Source: a virus (lineage: Duplodnaviria; Heunggongvirae; Uroviricota; Caudoviricetes). Taken from it: 41,141 bases of DNA. A model generated the notes under the pieces. That model was given only the letters and a program-made list of their open reading frames with translations. It made no database searches and was not told the origin of the DNA. Made by a program: the position numbers and the translations under genes. The DNA lies in the IMG/VR virus record IMGVR_UViG_2718218171_000006, positions 1-41,141 of that record; one strand, given 5' to 3'. Shown piece by piece: positions 3,731 to 28,042 of the stretch. Each line of letters opens with the position of its first letter. Position 1 is the first letter of the stretch.

Positions 3731-6700
3731 TCAGCTAATCGTGATGCCTGCAGTGGCTTTCTTCATCACAACAACCAGCAAATCGCTGATACTTGCTGTG
3801 GGATACCAACCATTTACCCACCATGCTGATACAGAAAACTCCAGTGTCATTACGCCACTGCCTGCTGGCATATCAATAACACCCGTGTAAATCAGAGTAT
3901 TATCCAGAGCCGTTCGGTTATAAATTTCAGCCCCGTTTTTCTTCACTATCAGGCGGCATGACGAATAAGTATCGCTATTCTCCCGCTCATGTCTGGCACC
4001 GCAGAAAGCCACCGCTGGAATAACAATTTGCCGGTCAAACGGCTGATCGTCATAAACCCTGACGGTAATGGTCCCTGATGGCCACCGCTCCGGTGCACGG
4101 GAGTCCCGGGGGAAAGCTTTGCCCACTGTTTTAACGAGATCGCCTTCAATCTGGTTCGCGGACAGTTTTCCCAGAACCCGACAGTTCTCGTTAATCGTGA
4201 CGTTGTTGAGCGTCCCGGAGTTCGCATTCACGCTACCGCTGATATCGGCATTTTTCGCCGTCAGCCGCCCGTCCGGTGTCAGGGAAAATGCCGGAGGATT
4301 ACCGCCGCTGGTAATGGTCGGAGCCGTCAGGCGTTTCAGGAACACGTCGTTCATGAATATCTGATCGCCCTGACCAACAAACATTGGTCTTGTGTTGCCA
4401 TTAGACGGATCAATAAACGCGATACGGTTAGCGGCAACCAGGAACTGGCTCAGTTTGCCTTCCTCCGTATCCTCCATGCTGAGGCCAAGCCCCGCGACAT
4501 AATGCCTGCCGTCTTCGGTCTGCTCAATTTTGACGCCCCACATGGCATTCCATTTATCGTTGGCGTCTTTCCACTCTTTCGAAAACTCCTCCAGTTTGCT
4601 GGCGTTATCCTCCGTCAGCTCGACTTTTTCCAGCAGCTCCTTGCCGAGATGGGATTCAGTTATCTGGCCTTTGAAAAAATCCAGGTAACCTTCCGCATCA
4701 TCGCTCGCCCGACCGACAGCCTCCACGAATGCCGATTTGCCAACGGTGTTCACACTGCGAACGTAAAAATAATAATCATGGCCCGGCCTGATATTGATAC
4801 TGGCAGCTATCCAGTACAGCGCCGTGCCAAGATAGCGGGCTGTGGTTTCAACCTGCCTGATATCCGCAATCCGCTTTTCCGAGAACCAGAACTCAAACTG
4901 TACCGTCGGATCATAAACGGCAAGATGCGGCGTGGCGGTGATCTGAAAATAGCCCGGCGTCAGCTCAATCCGCGACGGCGCTGACGGTGCGGCAATCCGG
5001 AACGATACCGACGCCGGATCGCCCTGCTGTCCCCACGCATTTACCGCCCGGACTGTCAGCCTGTAGTTTCCCAGCGCCAGTTGCGTGAATCGGTATGTGG
5101 TTTCCGTCGTCCGGGCCGTGCTGACCAGCCGCTCACTGCCGTCATCCGCTGCCACGGTCAGGCGAAGCATAAAGCTCACACCCTTCACCACCTTCGGCGT
5201 ATCCCAGCGCGCCAGCACCTGGTATTCCCCGCTGTCTGCGGTGACTTCTGCGGTCAGGTGCTGCACTGCTGGCGGCGTGACACCATTCACCGTGCCGCTC
5301 TGGTCGCCGTCAAAGTGCGCCCCGTTATCCACGATGGCCTCTTTCTCCGGCACATGCTGCACAGCGGTGATGGCATACGTGCCGTCGTCATTCTCACGGA
5401 TACTCACGCAGCGGAACAGGCGCTGGCGCAGCGTCGGCAGCTTCAGCCCCCACACGCTGTACTCGGCAACGCCATCAGGAACCCGGCTCACTTTTATCTT
5501 CACGCCGTCGGTGACGGACTGGACCTCCACGCTGACCGGATTCCCCTGTCCGTCAACCAGGCTTATCAGCGTGGTGCCGGAGGATGGCAGCGTGATTTCA
5601 CGGTCGAGCGTCAGTGTCCGCGTCTGGCTGTTCACCGCCAGCACGCGCCCGCCGGTGCTGATCCCCGCATAGTCATCATCACAGATTTCAATGACATCGC
5701 CCGGTACATGGCGAAGCCCTTCTGCGCCCACGCTGAAGTCCACGGTCTGCGTTTCCAGCAGCTCCGTTTTAATCAGCCACAGCCCGGCGCGGTGTGCCTG
5801 CCCCCGGCTGGTACAGCCAAAGGCATCCATCTTCGTGACGTTACGACCGTAACGGAGAATGGCCTGCGTATCTTCAACAAGCTCTGTCGCCGTCTCCCAG
5901 CCGTTATTCGGATCAATCCAGTTCACCTCAACGGCATTATGGCGGTCCTTCAGGGCGCTGAAGCTGTAACGGAACGGCGCGCCATCATCCGGCATCACCA
6001 CATTACTGCGGTTATAGGTCCACACCTTATCCGACGGTCGGTCCTGCACGAACGTCAGCGTCTGCCCGTTCCATACCGGCATACAGCGCATCGCCGAGCA
6101 GAAATCACTGAGAACATCCCACGCCTTGCGCTGTGTGGTCAGGTAAGCGTTACAGGTGATGCGCGGCTCCGTGCCACCAAAGCCATCCGGCACCGACTGG
6201 TCGCAGTACTGGCCGATGACATACAGCGCCCATTTGTCCACATCCGCTGCACCAAGACGTTTCCCCATGCCGTAACGCGGGTGGGTCAGCATATCCCACA
6301 GACACCAGGCCATGTTGTTGCTGTATGCTGGCTTAAACGTTCCGTCCCAGATACCGCTGTATTGCCGCGTCTGCGGGTTATAGTTCGACGGCACCTGCAG
6401 AATGCGCCCGCGAAGATGATAATTACGGCTCACCTGCTGGCTGCCGAACTGTTCCGAGTCCACCTGCACGCCAACCAGTGCCGTGTTCGGGTAGCACTGT
6501 TTCACATCGATGATTTCAGTGTATGACGACCAGAGCGTTTTGTTCTGCAGCTGGTCTGTGGTGCTGTCCGGTGTCATCCTGCGCATACGGATATTAAACG
6601 GGCGCGGCGGCAGGTTACCCACCACCACCGAGGCCAGATACTGCGAGGTGGTTTTGCCCTTAATGGTGATGTCTTTTTCCGTCACCCAGCCACCGTTACG

Positions 6701-7126
6701 TTGTATCTGAACCAGCAGGCGGACTTCCGACGGATTCCGGTCCCCCTTTGAGGTGGTTTCCACCAGTGCCTGCACACCGAAGGTAAGGCGCAGACGGTCG
6801 ATGTTTGCAGACGTGATAGTGCGGGTGATCGGCGTGTCATATTTCACTTCCGTACCCAGCACCGTCTCGGAGCCGGAGGATTCAAACCCCTCCGGCGGTG
6901 TCTGCTCCTGCTCACCTGCCCGGAACACCACCGTGACACCGGAGATGTTGGTATTACCCTCAGTGTCCAGCACTGGCGTACTGTTCAGCAGCACGCTTTT
7001 TAATCCATCCACCGGACCTTCAATCGGCCCTTCGCTGATGGCATCGATCACACTCAGTAACTGCGTGGATTTCAGGTTGTCCTTTGCTTCGCGCGGGGTA
7101 TGCCCCTTACTGCTTCCTTTGCCCAT
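3731..7126 (-). CDS. J: Tail tip host-specificity protein J
   Basis: 1131 aa; N-terminus [42 protein letters not shown] as in lambda J; fibronectin-like central region. Confidence 0.95.
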
Positions 7127-22618: not shown

Positions 22619-23056
22619 TTAATTCAGACATTGCGTCCTGATGTACTCCTGCAGGTAGTTAACCTGCGCGGTTATCCTGTCGATTCCACTTCGGAGACGG
22701 TAATAATTGAGTTCAGCATCTGCTGTAAGTCTTGGGCTTTCTCCATCGCCCATGCCGCTGGCTCCGGTCGTTGACTTTGCACAGGTGGCGGCGACTTGCA
22801 GGCGCTTACGCCCAGCAGAAACATCAGCACGGAGACTTTCGATAGTCGCGTTAGCATCAGCAAGCTCCTTTGTATATCTGGCATCGAGTTCAGCTACATT
22901 ACGTTGACGTTTCTGCATGTCAGCGATAATGGATGCGGCCTTATCGCGCTGTTCTTTGTAGGCGATGGCGTTATCACGGTAATGATTAACAGCCCATGAC
23001 AGGCAGGCGATGATACAAATAACCAGAGCGGAGATAATCGCGGTTACTCTGCTCAT
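22619..23056 (-). CDS. Rz: Spanin inner-membrane subunit Rz
   Basis: N-terminus [31 protein letters not shown] matches lambda Rz. Confidence 0.9.
22672..22857 (-). CDS. Rz1: Spanin outer-membrane lipoprotein subunit Rz1 (embedded in Rz, +1 frame)
   Basis: Start at [20 protein letters not shown] with lipobox VSAC, followed by a Pro-rich mature peptide. Confidence 0.75.
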
Positions 23057-23529
23057 ACCTCAATCTCTCTGACCGTTCCGCCTGCTTCTTTGAATTTTGC
23101 AATCAGGCTGTCAACTTTATGCTCGAACTGACCATAACCAGCGCCCGGTAGTGAAGCCCAGATATTGCTGCAACGGTCGATAGCCTGACGAATATCACCG
23201 CGATCAATCATCGGTAAAGCGCCACGCTCTTTAATCTGCTGCAGAGCTACAGCGTCCTGGCTTTCTGGAGAAAAATCTTTCAGGCCAAGCTGTTTACGGT
23301 AAGCATCCCACCAGCGTGAAAGAAGCTGGTAACGTCCGGCGGCTGTTGATTTGAGTTTGGGGTTTAGCGTGACAAGTTTGCGAGGATGATCGGAGTAATC
23401 CGTGAATAACTCACCACCTACAATAACGTCGTAGCCGTGATTGCGGGTTGGCTGCCGCCCGTTATCCGTTCCTTCTGACCACGCCAACATATCGAGGAAA
23501 GCTTTACGCTGGGAATTTAGTACCTGCAT
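23053..23529 (-). CDS. R: Endolysin R (lytic transglycosylase)
   Basis: 158 aa; ...[46 protein letters not shown] matches lambda R. Confidence 0.95.
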
Positions 23530-23532
23530 AAA

Positions 23533-23868
23533 TTACTCCTTAGAGCCACCAAACTTGTTACCGATTACTCGCATTGCAGCCCCACGAATAGCATCGACAC
23601 CGATCAGCCCCACGCCGCCACCAATGGCAACAGAAAGTGATTTAGGCCATCCGACATACTCAAGAGCGGATGCAAAGGTCAGCGTCAGAGCGCCACAGAG
23701 CAAAATCTCGAGCGTTTTTCGCTTCCAGCCACCACCACCGCCAAAATAGGCGATGCGCAAACCAGCCATAACGATCGACATAATCACTGCACCCAGCGGC
23801 GTGTCTCCACGCCACCAGCTCTGAAACAACTCCAGCCAGTCCGGCCAGGTATTTGGGTTATGAGGCAT
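23533..23868 (-). CDS. Putative holin (longer form possible from GTG at 23964)
   Basis: Small protein with 2-3 TM segments immediately upstream of R; ATG at 23868 gives 111 aa; not the lambda S sequence. Confidence 0.55.
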   Translation of the reverse strand: MPHNPNTWPDWLELFQSWWRGDTPLGAVIMSIVMAGLRIAYFGGGGGWKRKTLEILLCGALTLTFASALEYVGWPKSLSVAIGGGVGLIGVDAIRGAAMRVIGNKFGGSKE

Positions 23869-23944
23869 TTCGTCATCTCTCACCTCGCGATATTTGCGGG
23901 TGCTGTGTTGGAAATAAAAAGGCCACGCAACGTGGCCACCAGAA

Positions 23945-24997
23945 TTATTTCCCCACCAGTTCACTTACCTCTTTCACCGTCTGATTAAACCGCTCTGACT
24001 CAAGTTCAACACCTAACGCCCGACGCCCCAGCGCCATTGCTGCTTTTATTGTGGAACCGGATCCCATAAAGAAATCAGCAACCAGATCACCAGGTCGACT
24101 ACTGGCATTGATTATTTGCCGGAGCATATCCGCCGGTTTCTCGCACGGATGTTTACCCGGGTAGAACTGAACGGGCTTATGCGTCCAGACATCGGTATAA
24201 GGCACGGAGACTGATACGGAGAAATAGCGCCGGAGAGATTTAAACTCATCCAGCAATTCAGAATATTTGCGATTCAGTGAATCATAAGATGCCACCAGCT
24301 GGTGGTGTGGTTGTTCCAGTTGTTGTTCCTGAAACTTCTCTGCCGCTACACGGGAAAACAGTGCCTGTAACTTCCGATAGTCAGCCTCATTCGGCAACTG
24401 CCACTGACTGGCACCAAACCAGTGGGAAACCATATTTTTCTTACCTGTGGCTTCGGCAATTTGTTTTGCCGTTATACCCAGTTCGGCACGAGCATCCCTG
24501 AAATACGATATCAGCGGTGCCATTATGTGCTGTTTGAGTTCCCTTTCTTTTGCCGCATAGCCATCACTTTTGCCACGATATGGCCCCTGGTAATGTTCAG
24601 CAAACAGAACGCGCTCTGTGGCAGGAAAATATGCGCGCAGACTTTCTTTATTACACCCATTCCAACGTCCGGACGGCTTCGCCCAGATGATATGGTTAAG
24701 CACGTTGAAACGTTCACGCATCATGATCTCAATATCAGATGCCAGGCGATGCCCACAGAACAGGTAAAGGCTTCCGGCAGGTTTCAACACCCGCCAGAAC
24801 TGGGCCAGACAGTGGTTCAGCCACTTAAGGTAATCTTCGTCCCCTTTCCACTGATTGTCCCAGCCGTTGGGTTTCACCTTGAAGTACGGCGGATCGGTAA
24901 CAATCAGGTCAATGGAATCATCAGGCAGGGAATGAATAAAATGCAGGCAATCAGCGTTGATTAAATCAACACTGTTTATTTTTACAGTATTTTTCAT
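23945..24997 (-). CDS. DNA methyltransferase, beta-class N6-adenine/N4-cytosine type
   Basis: 350 aa; DPPY motif near the N-terminus (LIVTDPPYFKV) and FxGSGST AdoMet motif near the C-terminus (DFFMGSGSTIKAA). Confidence 0.85.
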   Translation of the reverse strand: MKNTVKINSVDLINADCLHFIHSLPDDSIDLIVTDPPYFKVKPNGWDNQWKGDEDYLKWLNHCLAQFWRVLKPAGSLYLFCGHRLASDIEIMMRERFNVLNHIIWAKPSGRWNGCNKESLRAYFPATERVLFAEHYQGPYRGKSDGYAAKERELKQHIMAPLISYFRDARAELGITAKQIAEATGKKNMVSHWFGASQWQLPNEADYRKLQALFSRVAAEKFQEQQLEQPHHQLVASYDSLNRKYSELLDEFKSLRRYFSVSVSVPYTDVWTHKPVQFYPGKHPCEKPADMLRQIINASSRPGDLVADFFMGSGSTIKAAMALGRRALGVELESERFNQTVKEVSELVGK

Positions 24998-25147
24998 GGA
25001 TCAGTAAGCGTAACTCTGGTAGGCTCACTCTGCTTTTGCGCTAAAGCAGTGGGCCGTGGTTCGCTTGTGACCAGTAAGCATGAGCGAATGGCTGGCAGGT
25101 GCTACCAACACCCACCAGCCGCCCATTTTCACAGCAGGAAACCGCCA

Positions 25148-25351
25148 TTACTGGCAGCGTCTGAATTTATTCCCGTACCCGCCGTTATCCTTCGCCAGCC
25201 CCGCCAGAACTAACTGAGTCAGTATTAACTGGCACCGGGCTTCGCTTACTCCGGTAGTTCTCGTCATCATGCGTGGCGTTACCCACTTGTCAGCAGGTAA
25301 GAAATGAAGGACTGCGGCGGCGGTTTCTGTCATATCTTGCTGTTTTAGCAT
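25148..25351 (-). CDS. Hypothetical small protein, possible winged-helix DNA-binding fold
   Basis: 67 aa from ATG 25351 with AAGGG RBS; ORF extends to 25375; no family recognised. Confidence 0.35.
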   Translation of the reverse strand: MLKQQDMTETAAAVLHFLPADKWVTPRMMTRTTGVSEARCQLILTQLVLAGLAKDNGGYGNKFRRCQ

Positions 25352-25473
25352 GTCTTTTTCCCTTCTGGTTAACATGACATACCAATAACTCTTGTCTAAA
25401 AAGCCAGCAAGATAAAAAGTCAGTATTCACGACCACCAGCGTGTTTACTGTACTGCACCAAGTTTACAGGTAC

Positions 25474-25495
25474 AAAAAACCCGCTCAGTGGCGGG
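25474..25495 (-). terminator. Intrinsic terminator downstream of the lipoprotein moron (copy A of duplicated hairpin)
   Basis: Minus-strand CCCGC-CACTGA-GCGGG followed by TTTTTT. Confidence 0.5.
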
Positions 25496-25574
25496 TTGCT
25501 ATCACAGCTATATATTTACTTATTATTCCGTTACTAACATTTATCTTCGACATATAATCGAAAACAAGGTTTAC

Positions 25575-26000
25575 TTAAAACTCTGCTTTCATTTTATCCG
25601 GGAATTTTTTATTTGCAGCATAATAACTACCAAGTACATAAGCGTTCATTTGCTGCTCTACATCAACCCGACATGCCGCACTAGAACAAGCTCCACTGAT
25701 AAGCCCAAAAGAACTCCCTTTAGCAGAGAGATCAGCTTTGATTTCCTCTACAGTGTTTTTCCCCATAGCAACTACACACCCTGTCACAATATATCTAGCC
25801 TTCACATCATCCATGCTAAGGATAGTAGTTTTCGCAATTTTGCTGTATCCATCATTTTTATAAACATCCATGGCAAACGCACGGCAATCTGTATAATACG
25901 GACTTGCTTTAACTTGCGAATACTCAGGTAATTTCATACCTGCGCAACCAACTAAACAAAAACCTATCGCTGCTATTAATACCTTTTTCATTACAGTCAT
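25575..26000 (-). CDS. Moron-encoded lipoprotein, function unknown
   Basis: Signal peptide MKKVLIAAIGFCLVGC with lipobox; hand-counted 60-nt stretch ~30% GC; lies between Q/tR' and the lysis genes. Confidence 0.7.
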   Translation of the reverse strand: MTVMKKVLIAAIGFCLVGCAGMKLPEYSQVKASPYYTDCRAFAMDVYKNDGYSKIAKTTILSMDDVKARYIVTGCVVAMGKNTVEEIKADLSAKGSSFGLISGACSSAACRVDVEQQMNAYVLGSYYAANKKFPDKMKAEF

Positions 26001-26149
26001 AACCTAGAAGCATCATTGAAACTAATTTATTAAATAATCATCGAGTTTCTGGAATACAGACGTTAACCATCTCTCCAAAATCTAAAAGATAATAAGAAAA
26101 AATGTTTAACGCACCAATCCATTTCATAGTTTCATGAGACATCAGGCAC

Positions 26150-26172
26150 AAAAAAACCCGCTCAGCGGCGGG
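26150..26172 (-). terminator. tR'-like intrinsic terminator of the late leader (copy B of duplicated hairpin)
   Basis: Minus-strand CCCGC-CGCTGA-GCGGG followed by TTTTTTT, ~40 nt downstream of the predicted late promoter. Confidence 0.55.
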
Positions 26173-26220
26173 TTTTTGACATTTACCAACGGTAGACATA
26201 CAAGGCCCATCGTTGAGAAA

Positions 26221-26249
26221 ATCTTATCCATATTTTTTGAAAAATGCAA
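26221..26249 (-). promoter_or_regulatory. Putative Q-dependent late promoter pR'
   Basis: Minus-strand TTGCAT(-35)-17 nt-TAAGAT(-10) just downstream of the Q stop. Confidence 0.4.
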
Positions 26250-26280
26250 GCATCACGTCGACATCTTCGGCGAAAATTAT

Positions 26281-27033
26281 CTATCTTGTCACTTTTCTCA
26301 ATTGCGATTCAGCATACGCTTCTTCCTGCCAGCACTTTGTAACCAGTTTATTAATAACGTCTGCATATCCTTTGTACCACTGATAATCCGTCAGGTCCGG
26401 TACCAGTTTCTGGACATGATGCCGCGCCAGTGTGGTTGGTAAACGGCTAAACCGGTTGCCATTGCAACGCCCACAAATCTTATAAACAGGCACACCATGA
26501 AGCCGGGTTCTTTTTTCATCCAGGACAATACCTTTACCCTTACACCCTCTGCACGCTGTGCTGACTTCTCCCTTACCATGGCAATGCTGACATAGTTCCT
26601 TCACCCACTCTTCCTTGATAACAGATTCCCCGCTTCTGGAGTGTTTCACCACTTCGCGCAATACATTATGAAATCCAGTACCAGCACAATGCTCACAGCG
26701 AGCCTTACTTGCCGCAGACCTGGAATAATCAGCAAAGGCAAAATTCACAAGGTAAGGGATGATCTGTAACCGGGTTTCTTCACTCAATTTGTTCAATGTC
26801 GGGTTATCCAGTGCCATCGCGTAATTGAGCAGACCTTCAATCGCAAATTGAGGATCCTGAACACCAACTTTTGCCAGGAATAAGGCAAACCCAAGCGGTG
26901 CTTTCGACTGCACCATCCCCTGCGCAGCCATCACATCCGTAATCGTTAAACCACCTGAGCCTGTCGCCGGTGCGTCATCGCTCAATTTTGGAGATTTTGG
27001 GGAGTAATATTTTGGTAAGGCTTCAAGGTTCAT
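26281..27033 (-). CDS. Late antiterminator Q-like protein (zinc-finger type)
   Basis: Start at MNLEALPKYYSPKSP...; Cys/His clusters CEHCAGTG, CQHCHGKG, CRGCKGKG, CGRCNGN; position immediately upstream of pR'/lysis genes. Confidence 0.75.
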   Translation of the reverse strand: MNLEALPKYYSPKSPKLSDDAPATGSGGLTITDVMAAQGMVQSKAPLGFALFLAKVGVQDPQFAIEGLLNYAMALDNPTLNKLSEETRLQIIPYLVNFAFADYSRSAASKARCEHCAGTGFHNVLREVVKHSRSGESVIKEEWVKELCQHCHGKGEVSTACRGCKGKGIVLDEKRTRLHGVPVYKICGRCNGNRFSRLPTTLARHHVQKLVPDLTDYQWYKGYADVINKLVTKCWQEEAYAESQLRKVTR

Positions 27034-27046
27034 GCTCGTTCTCCAC

Positions 27047-28042
27047 TTACGCCAGTACGCCAATTGCCAGCGCACGATCGATAAAACGAAATATCAGCTC
27101 CAGCTGAGAGCCATACTTCTCTTCAAATGCCACGGTATCCGCATGCAGCTCGTCGTGATGCTTTCTGCACAAAGGCAACACAAAGAGGTCATGCGCTTTT
27201 GTACCCATTCCACCCTGACCGTGGCCTATCAGGTGGTGGGGATCATCAGCAGGCTTTCCACAACATGCACACGGCTGTGTCTTAACCCAGCGCGTGTACT
27301 TTTCATTAACCCAGCGGCGACGTTTTGGGCGTAACATAAAAGACTCCGGCGACTCCGGATCCACTTTCAGCGCCAGCACCTTTTTCGCCTTATCCTGGAT
27401 GATGCTGGTGGCAGGAACCGAAGGCACAAGGTCACTTTCCCGGGTAACAGACGGCACAACAGGCTTCGGTAATCTCAGTGCCTTACGGGCTGCACTTTCC
27501 GGTAAGGCATCCGCCAGATCATTACGAATCAGCCACCAGCACAGTTCCGGCATTGTCACAACGTGACTGTCATCAAAACCGAGATCCCGACGCACAACAG
27601 ACAACACCCAGCGGGCACAGTTATCCGTTGCCATTGATTCCAGCCGTTCCGTGAACTGATCGCGCAGCTGGTTATCGCAGTGCCAGCACAGACGGATTGC
27701 ACCCGGCGCGTGTCGCATTGTGGTCATGTTCTCGCTGTGCCAGTCGGAATGAGGCCACTGGCAGCCTTTTTCACGAAGTAACCAGCTTTCAAGACATTCC
27801 ACGCCACCAGCACGACGGATCACTGCCTCATTGCGGAACACGGCCCGAACGGCAGGATCATCCGCCAGCGGTTGTGATGCCGCCGGAACGGCACCACTGG
27901 CGAAAGATGAATAACGCTCCGGCTCAGGCTCCAGCAGGACACGCCCCTGCATAAACAGGGGCATCAGCTCTGAACCTGGCCTGAACAATACGATCCCCAT
28001 ACGCGGGGCAATTTCAGGGGTCAGTAGTGCTCTCACGGTCAC
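27047..28042 (-). CDS. DUF968-family phage protein (YdfU-like) with C-terminal His/Cys cluster
   Basis: 331 aa; C-terminus CACCGKPADDPHHLIGHGQGG...CRKHHDELH; nin-region position. Confidence 0.55.
   Translation of the reverse strand: MTVRALLTPEIAPRMGIVLFRPGSELMPLFMQGRVLLEPEPERYSSFASGAVPAASQPLADDPAVRAVFRNEAVIRRAGGVECLESWLLREKGCQWPHSDWHSENMTTMRHAPGAIRLCWHCDNQLRDQFTERLESMATDNCARWVLSVVRRDLGFDDSHVVTMPELCWWLIRNDLADALPESAARKALRLPKPVVPSVTRESDLVPSVPATSIIQDKAKKVLALKVDPESPESFMLRPKRRRWVNEKYTRWVKTQPCACCGKPADDPHHLIGHGQGGMGTKAHDLFVLPLCRKHHDELHADTVAFEEKYGSQLELIFRFIDRALAIGVLA

Follow-up and report, generated by a model that had tools for sequence, protein, structure and literature searches.

The window analysed here (the whole stretch of viral DNA, 41,141 nucleotides) is a lambda-like siphovirus prophage of E. 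coli, with a structural half that is 95–98% identical to those of Tritos, PhiR40_1, PhiR47_1 and mEp460. The region of interest, a small cassette lying between the late antiterminator gene Q and the lysis genes, is matched at 100% identity by a chromosomal prophage of E. coli TUM1886. Every gene near the cassette is on the minus strand and, read in that direction, the order is Q, late promoter, hairpin A, lipoprotein gene, hairpin B, 75-aa ORF, methylase gene and lysis genes. The features referred to throughout are as follows, in transcript order:

28042..27047, minus strand: DUF968/YdfU protein, first in transcript order, before Q
26281..27075, minus strand: late antiterminator Q, a 264-aa ORF (Pfam PF03589, Antiterm, E = 6.9e-54)
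26209..26249, minus strand: pR'-like late promoter, read from the sequence (TTGCAT at 26249..26244, 17-nt spacer, TAAGAT at 26226..26221)
26214, minus strand: approximate start (+1) inferred for the late promoter, followed by AACGAT at 26214..26209
26143..26178, minus strand: hairpin A, read as the late terminator tR' (stem AAAAACCCGC/GCGGGTTTTT, loop CGCTGA, 7 T)
25498..26174, minus strand: 677-bp present/absent segment (one repeat copy, leader, lipoprotein gene and 3' UTR), with boundaries that can be slid within the repeat
26089..26117, minus strand: candidate moron promoter (TTGGTG at 26117..26112, 17-nt spacer, TATTAT at 26094..26089)
25575..26000, minus strand: lipoprotein gene, 141 aa (lipobox LVGC, Cys19; Ala at +2), with an ATG at 25991 as a possible alternative start
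25466..25497, minus strand: hairpin B, putative cassette terminator (stem AACCCGC/GCGGGTT, loop CACTGA, 6 T)
25148..25375, minus strand: 75-aa ORF, homologue of SfV orf47 (PHROG 331)
23945..24997, minus strand: N6/N4 DNA methyltransferase of the late leader (Pfam PF01555, E = 8.3e-43)
23921..23937, minus strand: third terminator-like hairpin, from a terminator scan, just past the methylase stop, where Ayreon and SfV have an annotated terminator
22619..23964, minus strand: lysis cassette of holin, endolysin, Rz and Rz1 (Pfam PF05106 holin; SfV and 720R4 annotations parallel)
23868..23533, minus strand: probable extent of the holin, with the start at 23868 inferred from the 111-aa length of SfV S
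23529..23053, minus strand: endolysin
23056..22619, minus strand: Rz
22884..22672, minus strand: Rz1, embedded in Rz

The GC content falls to 0.33–0.42 over 25400..26300, compared with ~0.5 in the flanks. An earlier note on this stretch, made from the sequence alone, had placed a low-GC gene for a lipobox-bearing protein at 25575..26000, between a Q-dependent late promoter with its terminator tR' and the lysis genes. Both statements hold: the 141-aa ORF has a GC content of 0.39 and an LVGC lipobox with Cys19, while the PF03589 Q gene lies on one side and holin, endolysin and Rz on the other. The Q protein additionally contains a DnaJ-type CXXCXGXG zinc motif, and its homologues in related phages are annotated with a length of 250 aa; those of mEp460, Ayreon and SfV bear the name 'antitermination protein Q'.

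Two further reading frames in the region were considered as genes and set aside. The first, a small ORF at 26038..26199 (phrog_37626), is annotated in Ayreon and in an Stx2k phage; it was dismissed for its overlap with hairpin A and for an early stop in the aligned Salmonella leader. The second, a plus-strand ORF at 25488..25931, was rejected because both conservation and dN/dS support the minus-strand frame.

Directly downstream of Q, the predicted late promoter (TTGCAT-17-TAAGAT) is followed by tttctcAACGATGGG, just as the lambda pR' promoter (TTGACT-17-TAAATT) is followed by tgactcAACGATGGG. The two share an identical 12-mer, ctcAACGATGGG, as initial transcribed sequence, at the same distance from the -10 element. 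It begins with AACGAT, which we take to be the sigma-70-dependent pause element of the lambda initial transcribed region, where Q loads. Hairpin A lies ~40 nt beyond this promoter-proximal pause motif and ~65 nt past the promoter; a transcript begun near 26214 and stopped in the T run of hairpin A would yield a leader RNA of ~65 nt. A terminator is annotated at the homologous place in SfV, and Ayreon annotates both hairpins as terminators. Because of the pR'-like start upstream, the ~65-nt leader and these annotations, the upstream hairpin is best read as the phage's own late terminator tR', i.e., as a working part and not as a scar.

The two hairpins are copies of one another. Their cores (25474..25497 and 26151..26174) are 24 nt long, identical at 23/24 positions and 677 nt apart. 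Allowing for one indel, the repeat extends to ~35/36 nt, reading on the minus strand AACCCGCC[G/A]CTGAGCGGGTTTTTT[T]GT[G/A]CCTG. A 20-mer from the repeat, with up to 2 mismatches allowed, occurs exactly twice in the 41-kb window, and none of 100 shuffled sequences contained a match (0/100); a repeat of this kind is beyond chance, none being expected. Both copies have the form of an intrinsic terminator: a GC-rich stem-loop (a 7-bp stem in hairpin B) followed on the minus strand by 6–7 T. Hairpin A also has an A tract upstream, and so is bidirectional in form. The two near-identical flanking copies, each described in the earlier note as a minus-strand terminator, are thus present at 25466..25497 and 26143..26174, and have the form that was described. 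A search of 24900..26400 against Rfam returned only sub-threshold matches, all of them terminator hairpins. The hairpin alleles vary between phages, with differences of the sort expected from recombination or conversion.

The gene between the hairpins encodes a protein with the N-terminus of a lipoprotein, as predicted for a signal peptidase II substrate: an n-region with two lysines (K-K), a hydrophobic core, and LVGC with Cys19. A strict PROSITE-style lipobox pattern passes in all seven homologues and fails in the window allele only, because residue -4 is a Cys in the latter. The lipobox Cys and four Cys of the mature domain are invariant among eight aligned sequences, and the motifs VYKNDGYSK and GCVV.MGK are conserved across the same alignment. 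Estimates of dN/dS are 0.09–0.23 (all pairs with estimable dS), from which it follows that the gene is real and constrained; it is under purifying selection. Ala at +2 (and no Asp) predicts, by the +2 rule, Lol-dependent sorting to the outer membrane.

In terms of relatives, the lipoprotein is an orphan. No Pfam family matched at E ≤ 0.01, and none in NCBIfam or PADLOC. Among the PHROGs only families of unknown function were recovered, the sole strong match being phrog_4748 (PHROG 4748). An AlphaFold2 model is all-alpha, with a mean pLDDT of 70.8; searches returned no fold match, and no PDB sequence match at E ≤ 10. Homologues fall into 9 clusters among 5.8 billion proteins, with 8 matches when 1.84 billion representatives were searched with a profile. 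These homologue searches revealed no distant annotated relative, with cluster names limited to 'hypothetical protein' or 'Lipoprotein'. The published Ayreon genome already contains the cassette, its gene labelled 'hypothetical protein' and lying between two terminators that are likewise annotated; our literature searches found no paper on the lipoprotein gene or the cassette.

Comparison with related phages reveals the empty site. In SfV and vB_EcoM-720R4, which share the same Q, promoter region, 75-aa ORF and methylase, there is one hairpin, and alignment with the window and Ayreon shows exactly 677 bp to be missing. This is the single-hairpin empty site that the earlier note had anticipated in relatives lacking the insert. 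The 75-aa ORF is the first backbone gene past tR' in cassette-free phages, and lies directly 3' of the single hairpin in SfV, 720R4 and PhiR40_1. The flanks of Ayreon (cassette present) and 720R4 (cassette absent) differ at ~3 of 290 aligned positions, and so are ~99% identical. Around its one hairpin, 720R4 has the upstream flank of the copy A side, the core, and the downstream flank of the copy B side, which is precisely the single-hairpin sequence expected from a crossover within the repeat. The SfV hairpin is a different allele: its loop base and its run of 7 T are those of copy A. The SfV downstream flank agrees in part with the beginning of the cassette leader (GTGCCT-GATGT) before rejoining the backbone.

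When the hairpin was used as a probe, at least 28 single-hairpin loci and at least 16 cassette loci were found among the matches listed, counts that are lower bounds and not frequencies; among the same matches, the repeat spacing is 676–677 nt in every cassette locus. The cassette is ~98% identical in mEp460, Ayreon and 15 Stx2c phages (97.9% in the Stx2c phages), and occurs in PhiR47_1 and phiSTEC1575-Stx2k as well. The last of these bears out the proposal that the cassette occupies the position where Shiga-toxin phages carry their toxin genes: it carries the cassette upstream of tRNAs and stx2AB, in the same transcription unit. The lipoprotein gene is found in 214 of 5426 complete E. coli genomes (~4%), always on the chromosome, and also in many Salmonella.

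The earlier note had interpreted the duplication as an insertion footprint. One part of that interpretation stands—the 677 bp is indeed either present or absent as a unit—while another does not, in that there is no transposition scar and copy A is the presumptive tR'. That the repeat is a target-site duplication, or another footprint of a mobile element that arrived by transposition or hairpin-targeted insertion, is to our mind very improbable. Direct repeats do bracket a low-GC insert, and the empty site does hold one copy. However, the 677 bp contains no transposase, no integrase or recombinase gene and no terminal inverted repeats, the lipoprotein gene being the only conserved ORF. The repeat is 24–40 nt long, and to our knowledge known target-site duplications are far shorter. 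Moreover, the repeated unit is the tR' hairpin, which is also found as a single copy behind unrelated Q genes and in numerous other phage settings, and the repeat copies vary by allele between phages.

The simplest account is instead a short-homology exchange at a shared terminator, plus selection that would keep a terminator after a promoter-bearing insert. Under this exchange model, a crossover within the 24–36-nt repeat would give the single-hairpin sequence of the relatives, and the repeat would double as functional insulation and as the homology patch for gain and loss of the 677-bp unit; the junction sequences themselves read the same for gain as for loss. Since close relatives lack exactly the 677-base piece, we regard the cassette as an ordinary accessory moron. 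In architecture and in mode of gain and loss, it is probably a self-contained moron sitting right after tR' and exchanged through the repeat.

Other cargo is found around the same hairpin. In phages with a different Q (121 aa, PF06530), a hairpin is followed by the same 75-aa ORF region, and other cargo, often in reverse orientation, lies between Q and the hairpin. On one further contig (L085), a PemK/MazF-like toxin gene occupies the same site, lying between the hairpin and a variant copy that follows after 695 nt.

A more distant version of the cassette is found in a Salmonella prophage, where the lipoprotein has 76% protein identity, Q is unrelated (DUF1133/PF06530) and a hairpin lies on each side. 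The Salmonella order is: a hairpin (AAGCCCGCCACTGAGCGGGTTTTTTTGTACCTG), a homologous but diverged leader, the lipoprotein gene, a second hairpin (AACCCGCATTGCGCGGGTTTTTGTATCCG), a methylase remnant and the holin gene. The sequence of the second hairpin has diverged while its terminator form is kept, and such retention of a diverged terminator past the gene suggests selection for termination. Given that dS between the E. coli and Salmonella versions exceeds 1.3 and that the latter is also flanked by hairpins, the two-hairpin layout predates the split of the two versions. This bears on a point raised in the earlier note, according to which an ancestral two-hairpin arrangement in relatives, together with a known and unrelated function of the gene, would speak against its interpretation: the layout is old, as the 76% identity in Salmonella illustrates, and the homologue clusters are named only 'hypothetical protein' or 'Lipoprotein'.

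Further homologues of the lipoprotein gene occur in settings far removed from a late operon. These include (i) Rac-like early regions, in which the gene is divergent from vapB (of a vapBC pair), (ii) a 111-kb Buttiauxella phage-plasmid with phage replication genes, in which a second small lipoprotein gene follows directly, (iii) an IS-rich E. coli contig, and (iv) Serratia chromosomes, where the gene lies between housekeeping genes and has a low GC content for the genus. Judging from these contexts, the gene would work as a lone unit with whatever promoter lies upstream, the late operon not being needed. That homologues stand alone elsewhere favours autonomous expression in the window prophage, too.

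A possible source of such expression lies in the leader. The pair TTGGTG-17-TATTAT (26117..26089) is the top-scoring sigma-70-like pair in the leader, and the aligned position of the Salmonella leader carries TTGGTA-18-TATCAT, which again has the top score. A stricter scan missed TTGGTG-17-TATTAT, and 30% of shuffled leaders score at least as high as the best pair of the actual leader; for the latter reason, we treat it as a candidate promoter only. An RNA element in the leader was also considered, and dropped because the leader folds no better than shuffles (z = -1.24).

Taken with the hairpins, the candidate promoter leads to the following model. In the lysogen, constitutive transcripts from the late promoter would stop at hairpin A after ~65 nt. 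The cassette would bring its own candidate promoter, the gene for a lipoprotein targeted to the outer membrane, and a second terminator (hairpin B), the last of which would keep moron transcripts out of the methylase gene and out of the genes for holin, endolysin and spanin. Once the prophage is induced, polymerase modified by Q would pass both hairpins, such that the lipoprotein would also be made late. We infer promoter use, termination, lipidation, sorting and the recombination route alike.

The lipoprotein gene could, alternatively, be a true late gene: lacking its own promoter, it would be expressed only once Q carries polymerase past hairpin A, and would act in the lytic cycle. Possible roles would then be to prevent the adsorption of progeny to debris, as has been proposed for T5 Llp, or to modulate lysis or the envelope, with hairpin B as a leftover of recombination. 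The gene is co-oriented with the late operon, it immediately follows tR' in two lineages whose Q genes are unrelated, and the candidate promoter is statistically weak, all of which is in line with late expression. We nevertheless consider a purely late gene unlikely. Homologues occur alone and far from late operons (divergent from vapB, or on Serratia chromosomes), and isolated phages—SfV, 720R4 and mEp460_4F5, all viable—lack the cassette. In addition, the Salmonella version keeps a downstream terminator whose form is retained despite its diverged sequence, and the position of the promoter-like pair is conserved between E. coli and Salmonella.

What a lipoprotein made by the lysogen might do can be approached by precedent. 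Apart from spanins, most characterised phage outer-membrane lipoproteins serve in exclusion or in protection of the host, and it is from this prior that we propose a protective role at the envelope. Our guess is an envelope-acting factor that benefits the lysogen; the most likely role, put forward tentatively, is to prevent other phages or envelope-targeting agents from entering at the outer membrane. The tail and structural module that accompanies the cassette in PhiR47_1 and mEp460 is also found in PhiR40_1 and mEp460_4F5, which lack the cassette, and the cassette is present in Stx phages as well; it is therefore not tied to one receptor type. This lack of linkage to the tail argues against masking of the phage's own receptor, and not against exclusion of other phages.

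Cor (of phi80, N15 and HK022), Llp (T5) and Bor (lambda), which had been suggested as analogues of the lipoprotein, are likewise small phage lipobox proteins expected in the outer membrane. Beyond this general likeness the analogy found no backing in homology and structure searches: neither sequence nor fold is similar, and the window lipoprotein is predicted to be all-helical. The setting differs from that of cor as well, in that the window gene adjoins Q whereas cor adjoins tail genes. For the Bor/Iss family specifically, there was no match in Pfam (E ≤ 0.01), in the PDB or by fold.

A factor for host interaction or protection, conferring Bor/Iss-like serum resistance or immunity to a periplasm-acting toxin (a bacteriocin or a type VI effector), is another role to be weighed, albeit one that we judge to have a low probability. 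The gene's distribution fits such a factor, being that of a lone accessory gene spread over prophages, a phage-plasmid, an IS-rich contig and the chromosomes of several Enterobacterales genera, with no linkage to tail type. So does the predicted nature of the protein: small, disulfide-capable, and periplasmic or in the outer membrane. However, it is unlike Bor or any solved immunity protein in sequence or fold, and no toxin gene adjoins it in the homologue loci read. Entry blocking on behalf of the lysogen remains the role that we propose.

The hairpin itself is widespread. Exact copies occur in at least 30 unrelated flank contexts on viral contigs, while two other terminators of the window, used as probes, gave 2 and 0 matches. 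A broader proposal can be built on this, namely that the hairpin AACCCGCC(A/G)CTGAGCGGGTT plus T run is, beyond its role as a terminator, a promiscuous and portable junction of temperate enterobacterial phages, a counterpart of the PeSL cassettes of T4-type phages, through which small cargo (often secreted or lipoprotein genes) is swapped by short homology, and that the lipoprotein represents a new class of envelope exclusion or immunity protein. We hold this combined proposal to be improbable.

At several sites variable cargo lies between copies of the hairpin, as in the baseplate regions of myoviruses, where the bracketed genes are variable and encode secreted proteins. Exact 27-nt matches to the hairpin were also found in an Alteromonas phage, with near-matches in Pseudomonas and Vibrio phages; such matches could reflect convergence towards a preferred kind of terminator just as well as spread of the hairpin.

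The cassette is of interest beyond the window for several reasons. Firstly, an insert that carries a promoter and lies ahead of the lysis genes would switch on lysis unless it also brought a terminator; the cassette illustrates this rule. Secondly, the tR'-to-lysis site is where Shiga toxin genes ride, which gives the rules for cargo at this position a practical interest. With the cassette in place, as in Stx2c and Stx2k phages, the late promoter is separated from the toxin genes by a second terminator. Thirdly, a gene present in ~4% of complete E. coli genomes, under purifying selection and without known relatives or a known fold, lends itself to phenotype screens as an inexpensive and well-defined target. 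Finally, precise gain and loss at a short shared hairpin illustrates in a concrete and testable way how small cargo moves between lambdoid mosaics.

Of the known systems, the closest to the late promoter region is the pR'/6S RNA/tR' arrangement of lambda: in both, the promoter lies just downstream of Q, the initial ctcAACGATGGG is identical, and there is a short terminated leader RNA, predicted in the case of the window. The differences are that (i) Q belongs to PF03589 here and to PF06530 in lambda, (ii) the leader would be ~65 nt long here, where lambda has ~190 nt between its pR' start and the T run of tR', and (iii) the terminator is present twice in the window, with the third terminator-like hairpin past the methylase. 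The stx genes of Shiga-toxin phages occupy the same hot spot, from tR' to lysis; the cargo here is an orphan lipoprotein gene with its own downstream terminator, and not a toxin. Arbiol et al. (2010) reportedly described PeSLs, mobile regulatory cassettes of T4-type phages, and these offer a further parallel: repeated regulatory stem-loops bracket variable small ORFs, and short homologies serve gain, loss and shuffling. A PeSL, however, consists of an early promoter plus a stem-loop in lytic T4-type genomes, whereas the window has a single kind of terminator hairpin, in temperate enterobacterial phages, with exchange inferred from the junctions only.

The comparison that best fits the cassette as a whole is with the morons of HK97 and HK022, the phages for which morons were defined (the definition is given in PMC2629481). 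As described there, morons are extra genes present or absent among otherwise collinear phages, of odd base composition, with their own terminator and probably their own promoter; furthermore, the insert sits in an operon whose function it does not serve. The cassette shares the presence/absence pattern, the base composition, the terminator (in form) and the placement, and has a candidate promoter; its expression from the prophage is predicted. By the criteria given in PMC2629481, the cassette is a textbook moron, at the known cargo hot spot downstream of tR'. Its peculiarity lies in the terminator, which is a copy of the neighbouring late terminator and not an unrelated one.

The 20-nt hairpin AACCCGCC(A/G)CTGAGCGGGTT, which brackets the lipoprotein cassette, also occurs elsewhere. 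Exact matches in viral contigs (IMG/VR loci L010-L128, e.g., L036, L050, L090, L116 and L119) have flanks that fall into 30 or more unrelated contexts. As a control, two other terminators of the window were used as probes, and returned 2 and 0 matches. In the IMG/VR loci, myovirus baseplate regions carry pairs of the hairpin (copies or variants) spaced 1.4-2.0 kb apart, enclosing a conserved 338-aa gene and variable small genes whose products have a signal peptide or are lipoproteins. The similarity does not end with the T run but continues into the ribosome-binding site of the gene that follows. Among the entries of the phages collection (H95-H123), Alteromonas phage P24 matches the hairpin plus T run exactly over 27 nt, and near-matches occur in Pseudomonas, Vibrio and other phages. 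These matches point either to convergence on a favoured terminator or to very wide spread.

The cassette site itself can hold other cargo. In IMG/VR contig 3300011784_000022 (L085 2362..3077), the same position—3' of a Q of the same family and the late promoter pR'—is occupied by a gene for a 133-aa PemK/MazF-like toxin (PF02452, E = 5e-12), with the hairpin on one side and, 695 nt downstream of it, a variant copy on the other; the holin comes just after. No antitoxin ORF was noted beside the toxin gene at this locus. The Q of the window (26281..27075, minus strand) carries, besides its PF03589 domain, a zinc-finger repeat of the DnaJ type, CXXCXGXG (PF00684, E = 1.6e-8). Where Q is short and of the PF06530 type, phages harbor different cargo, mostly in reverse orientation, between Q and the shared hairpin (L004, L015, L040, L042 and L125); this stretch, on the upstream side of the terminator, is a second hot spot for cargo. 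One example, from phage PhiR40_1, is:

L004 1930..2376, minus strand: gene for an unrelated 148-aa lipobox protein.

A Pfam search with this protein gave no match.

Homologues of the cassette lipoprotein were also found in other settings. Firstly, Buttiauxella sp. WJP83 (CP110081.1) encodes one on a replicon of 111 kb that also has replication genes of phage type; there it is followed by:

L008 6446..6745 (CP110081.1): second small lipoprotein gene, 99 aa with an LSGC lipobox, starting 10 nt after the homologue.

The 99-aa product has no Pfam match. This arrangement suggests that the two genes form a unit in this replicon. Secondly, Serratia chromosomes (L129-L131) carry homologues of 55-62% identity flanked by housekeeping genes, e.g., adjoining emrAB and trxC. 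Their GC content (0.42-0.45) is low for Serratia, and thus they look acquired there too. Finally, in a Salmonella prophage (L007), the methylase reading frame 3' of the cassette is reduced to its 3' end (about 6560..6810; the remnant ends ...ETERFSQTVSKVEALAKR), and is followed by a holin of a different type.

Two further features of the window are:

26038..26199, minus strand: 53-aa ORF overlapping hairpin A (the late terminator tR') and the cassette leader.
23921..23964: stretch with a third terminator-like hairpin, GGCCACGTTGCGTGGCC plus T run, just 3' of the methylase stop codon.

The annotations of Ayreon and of the Stx2k phage phiSTEC1575-Stx2k list a shorter version of the 53-aa ORF, with a match to phrog_37626. 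The ORF is unlikely to be a gene, given the early stop in the Salmonella leader that aligns with it. The third hairpin falls within the 5' end of a mechanically listed 143-aa holin ORF. The holin itself probably starts from the ATG at 23868, giving a protein of 111 aa—the same length as S of the related phage SfV.
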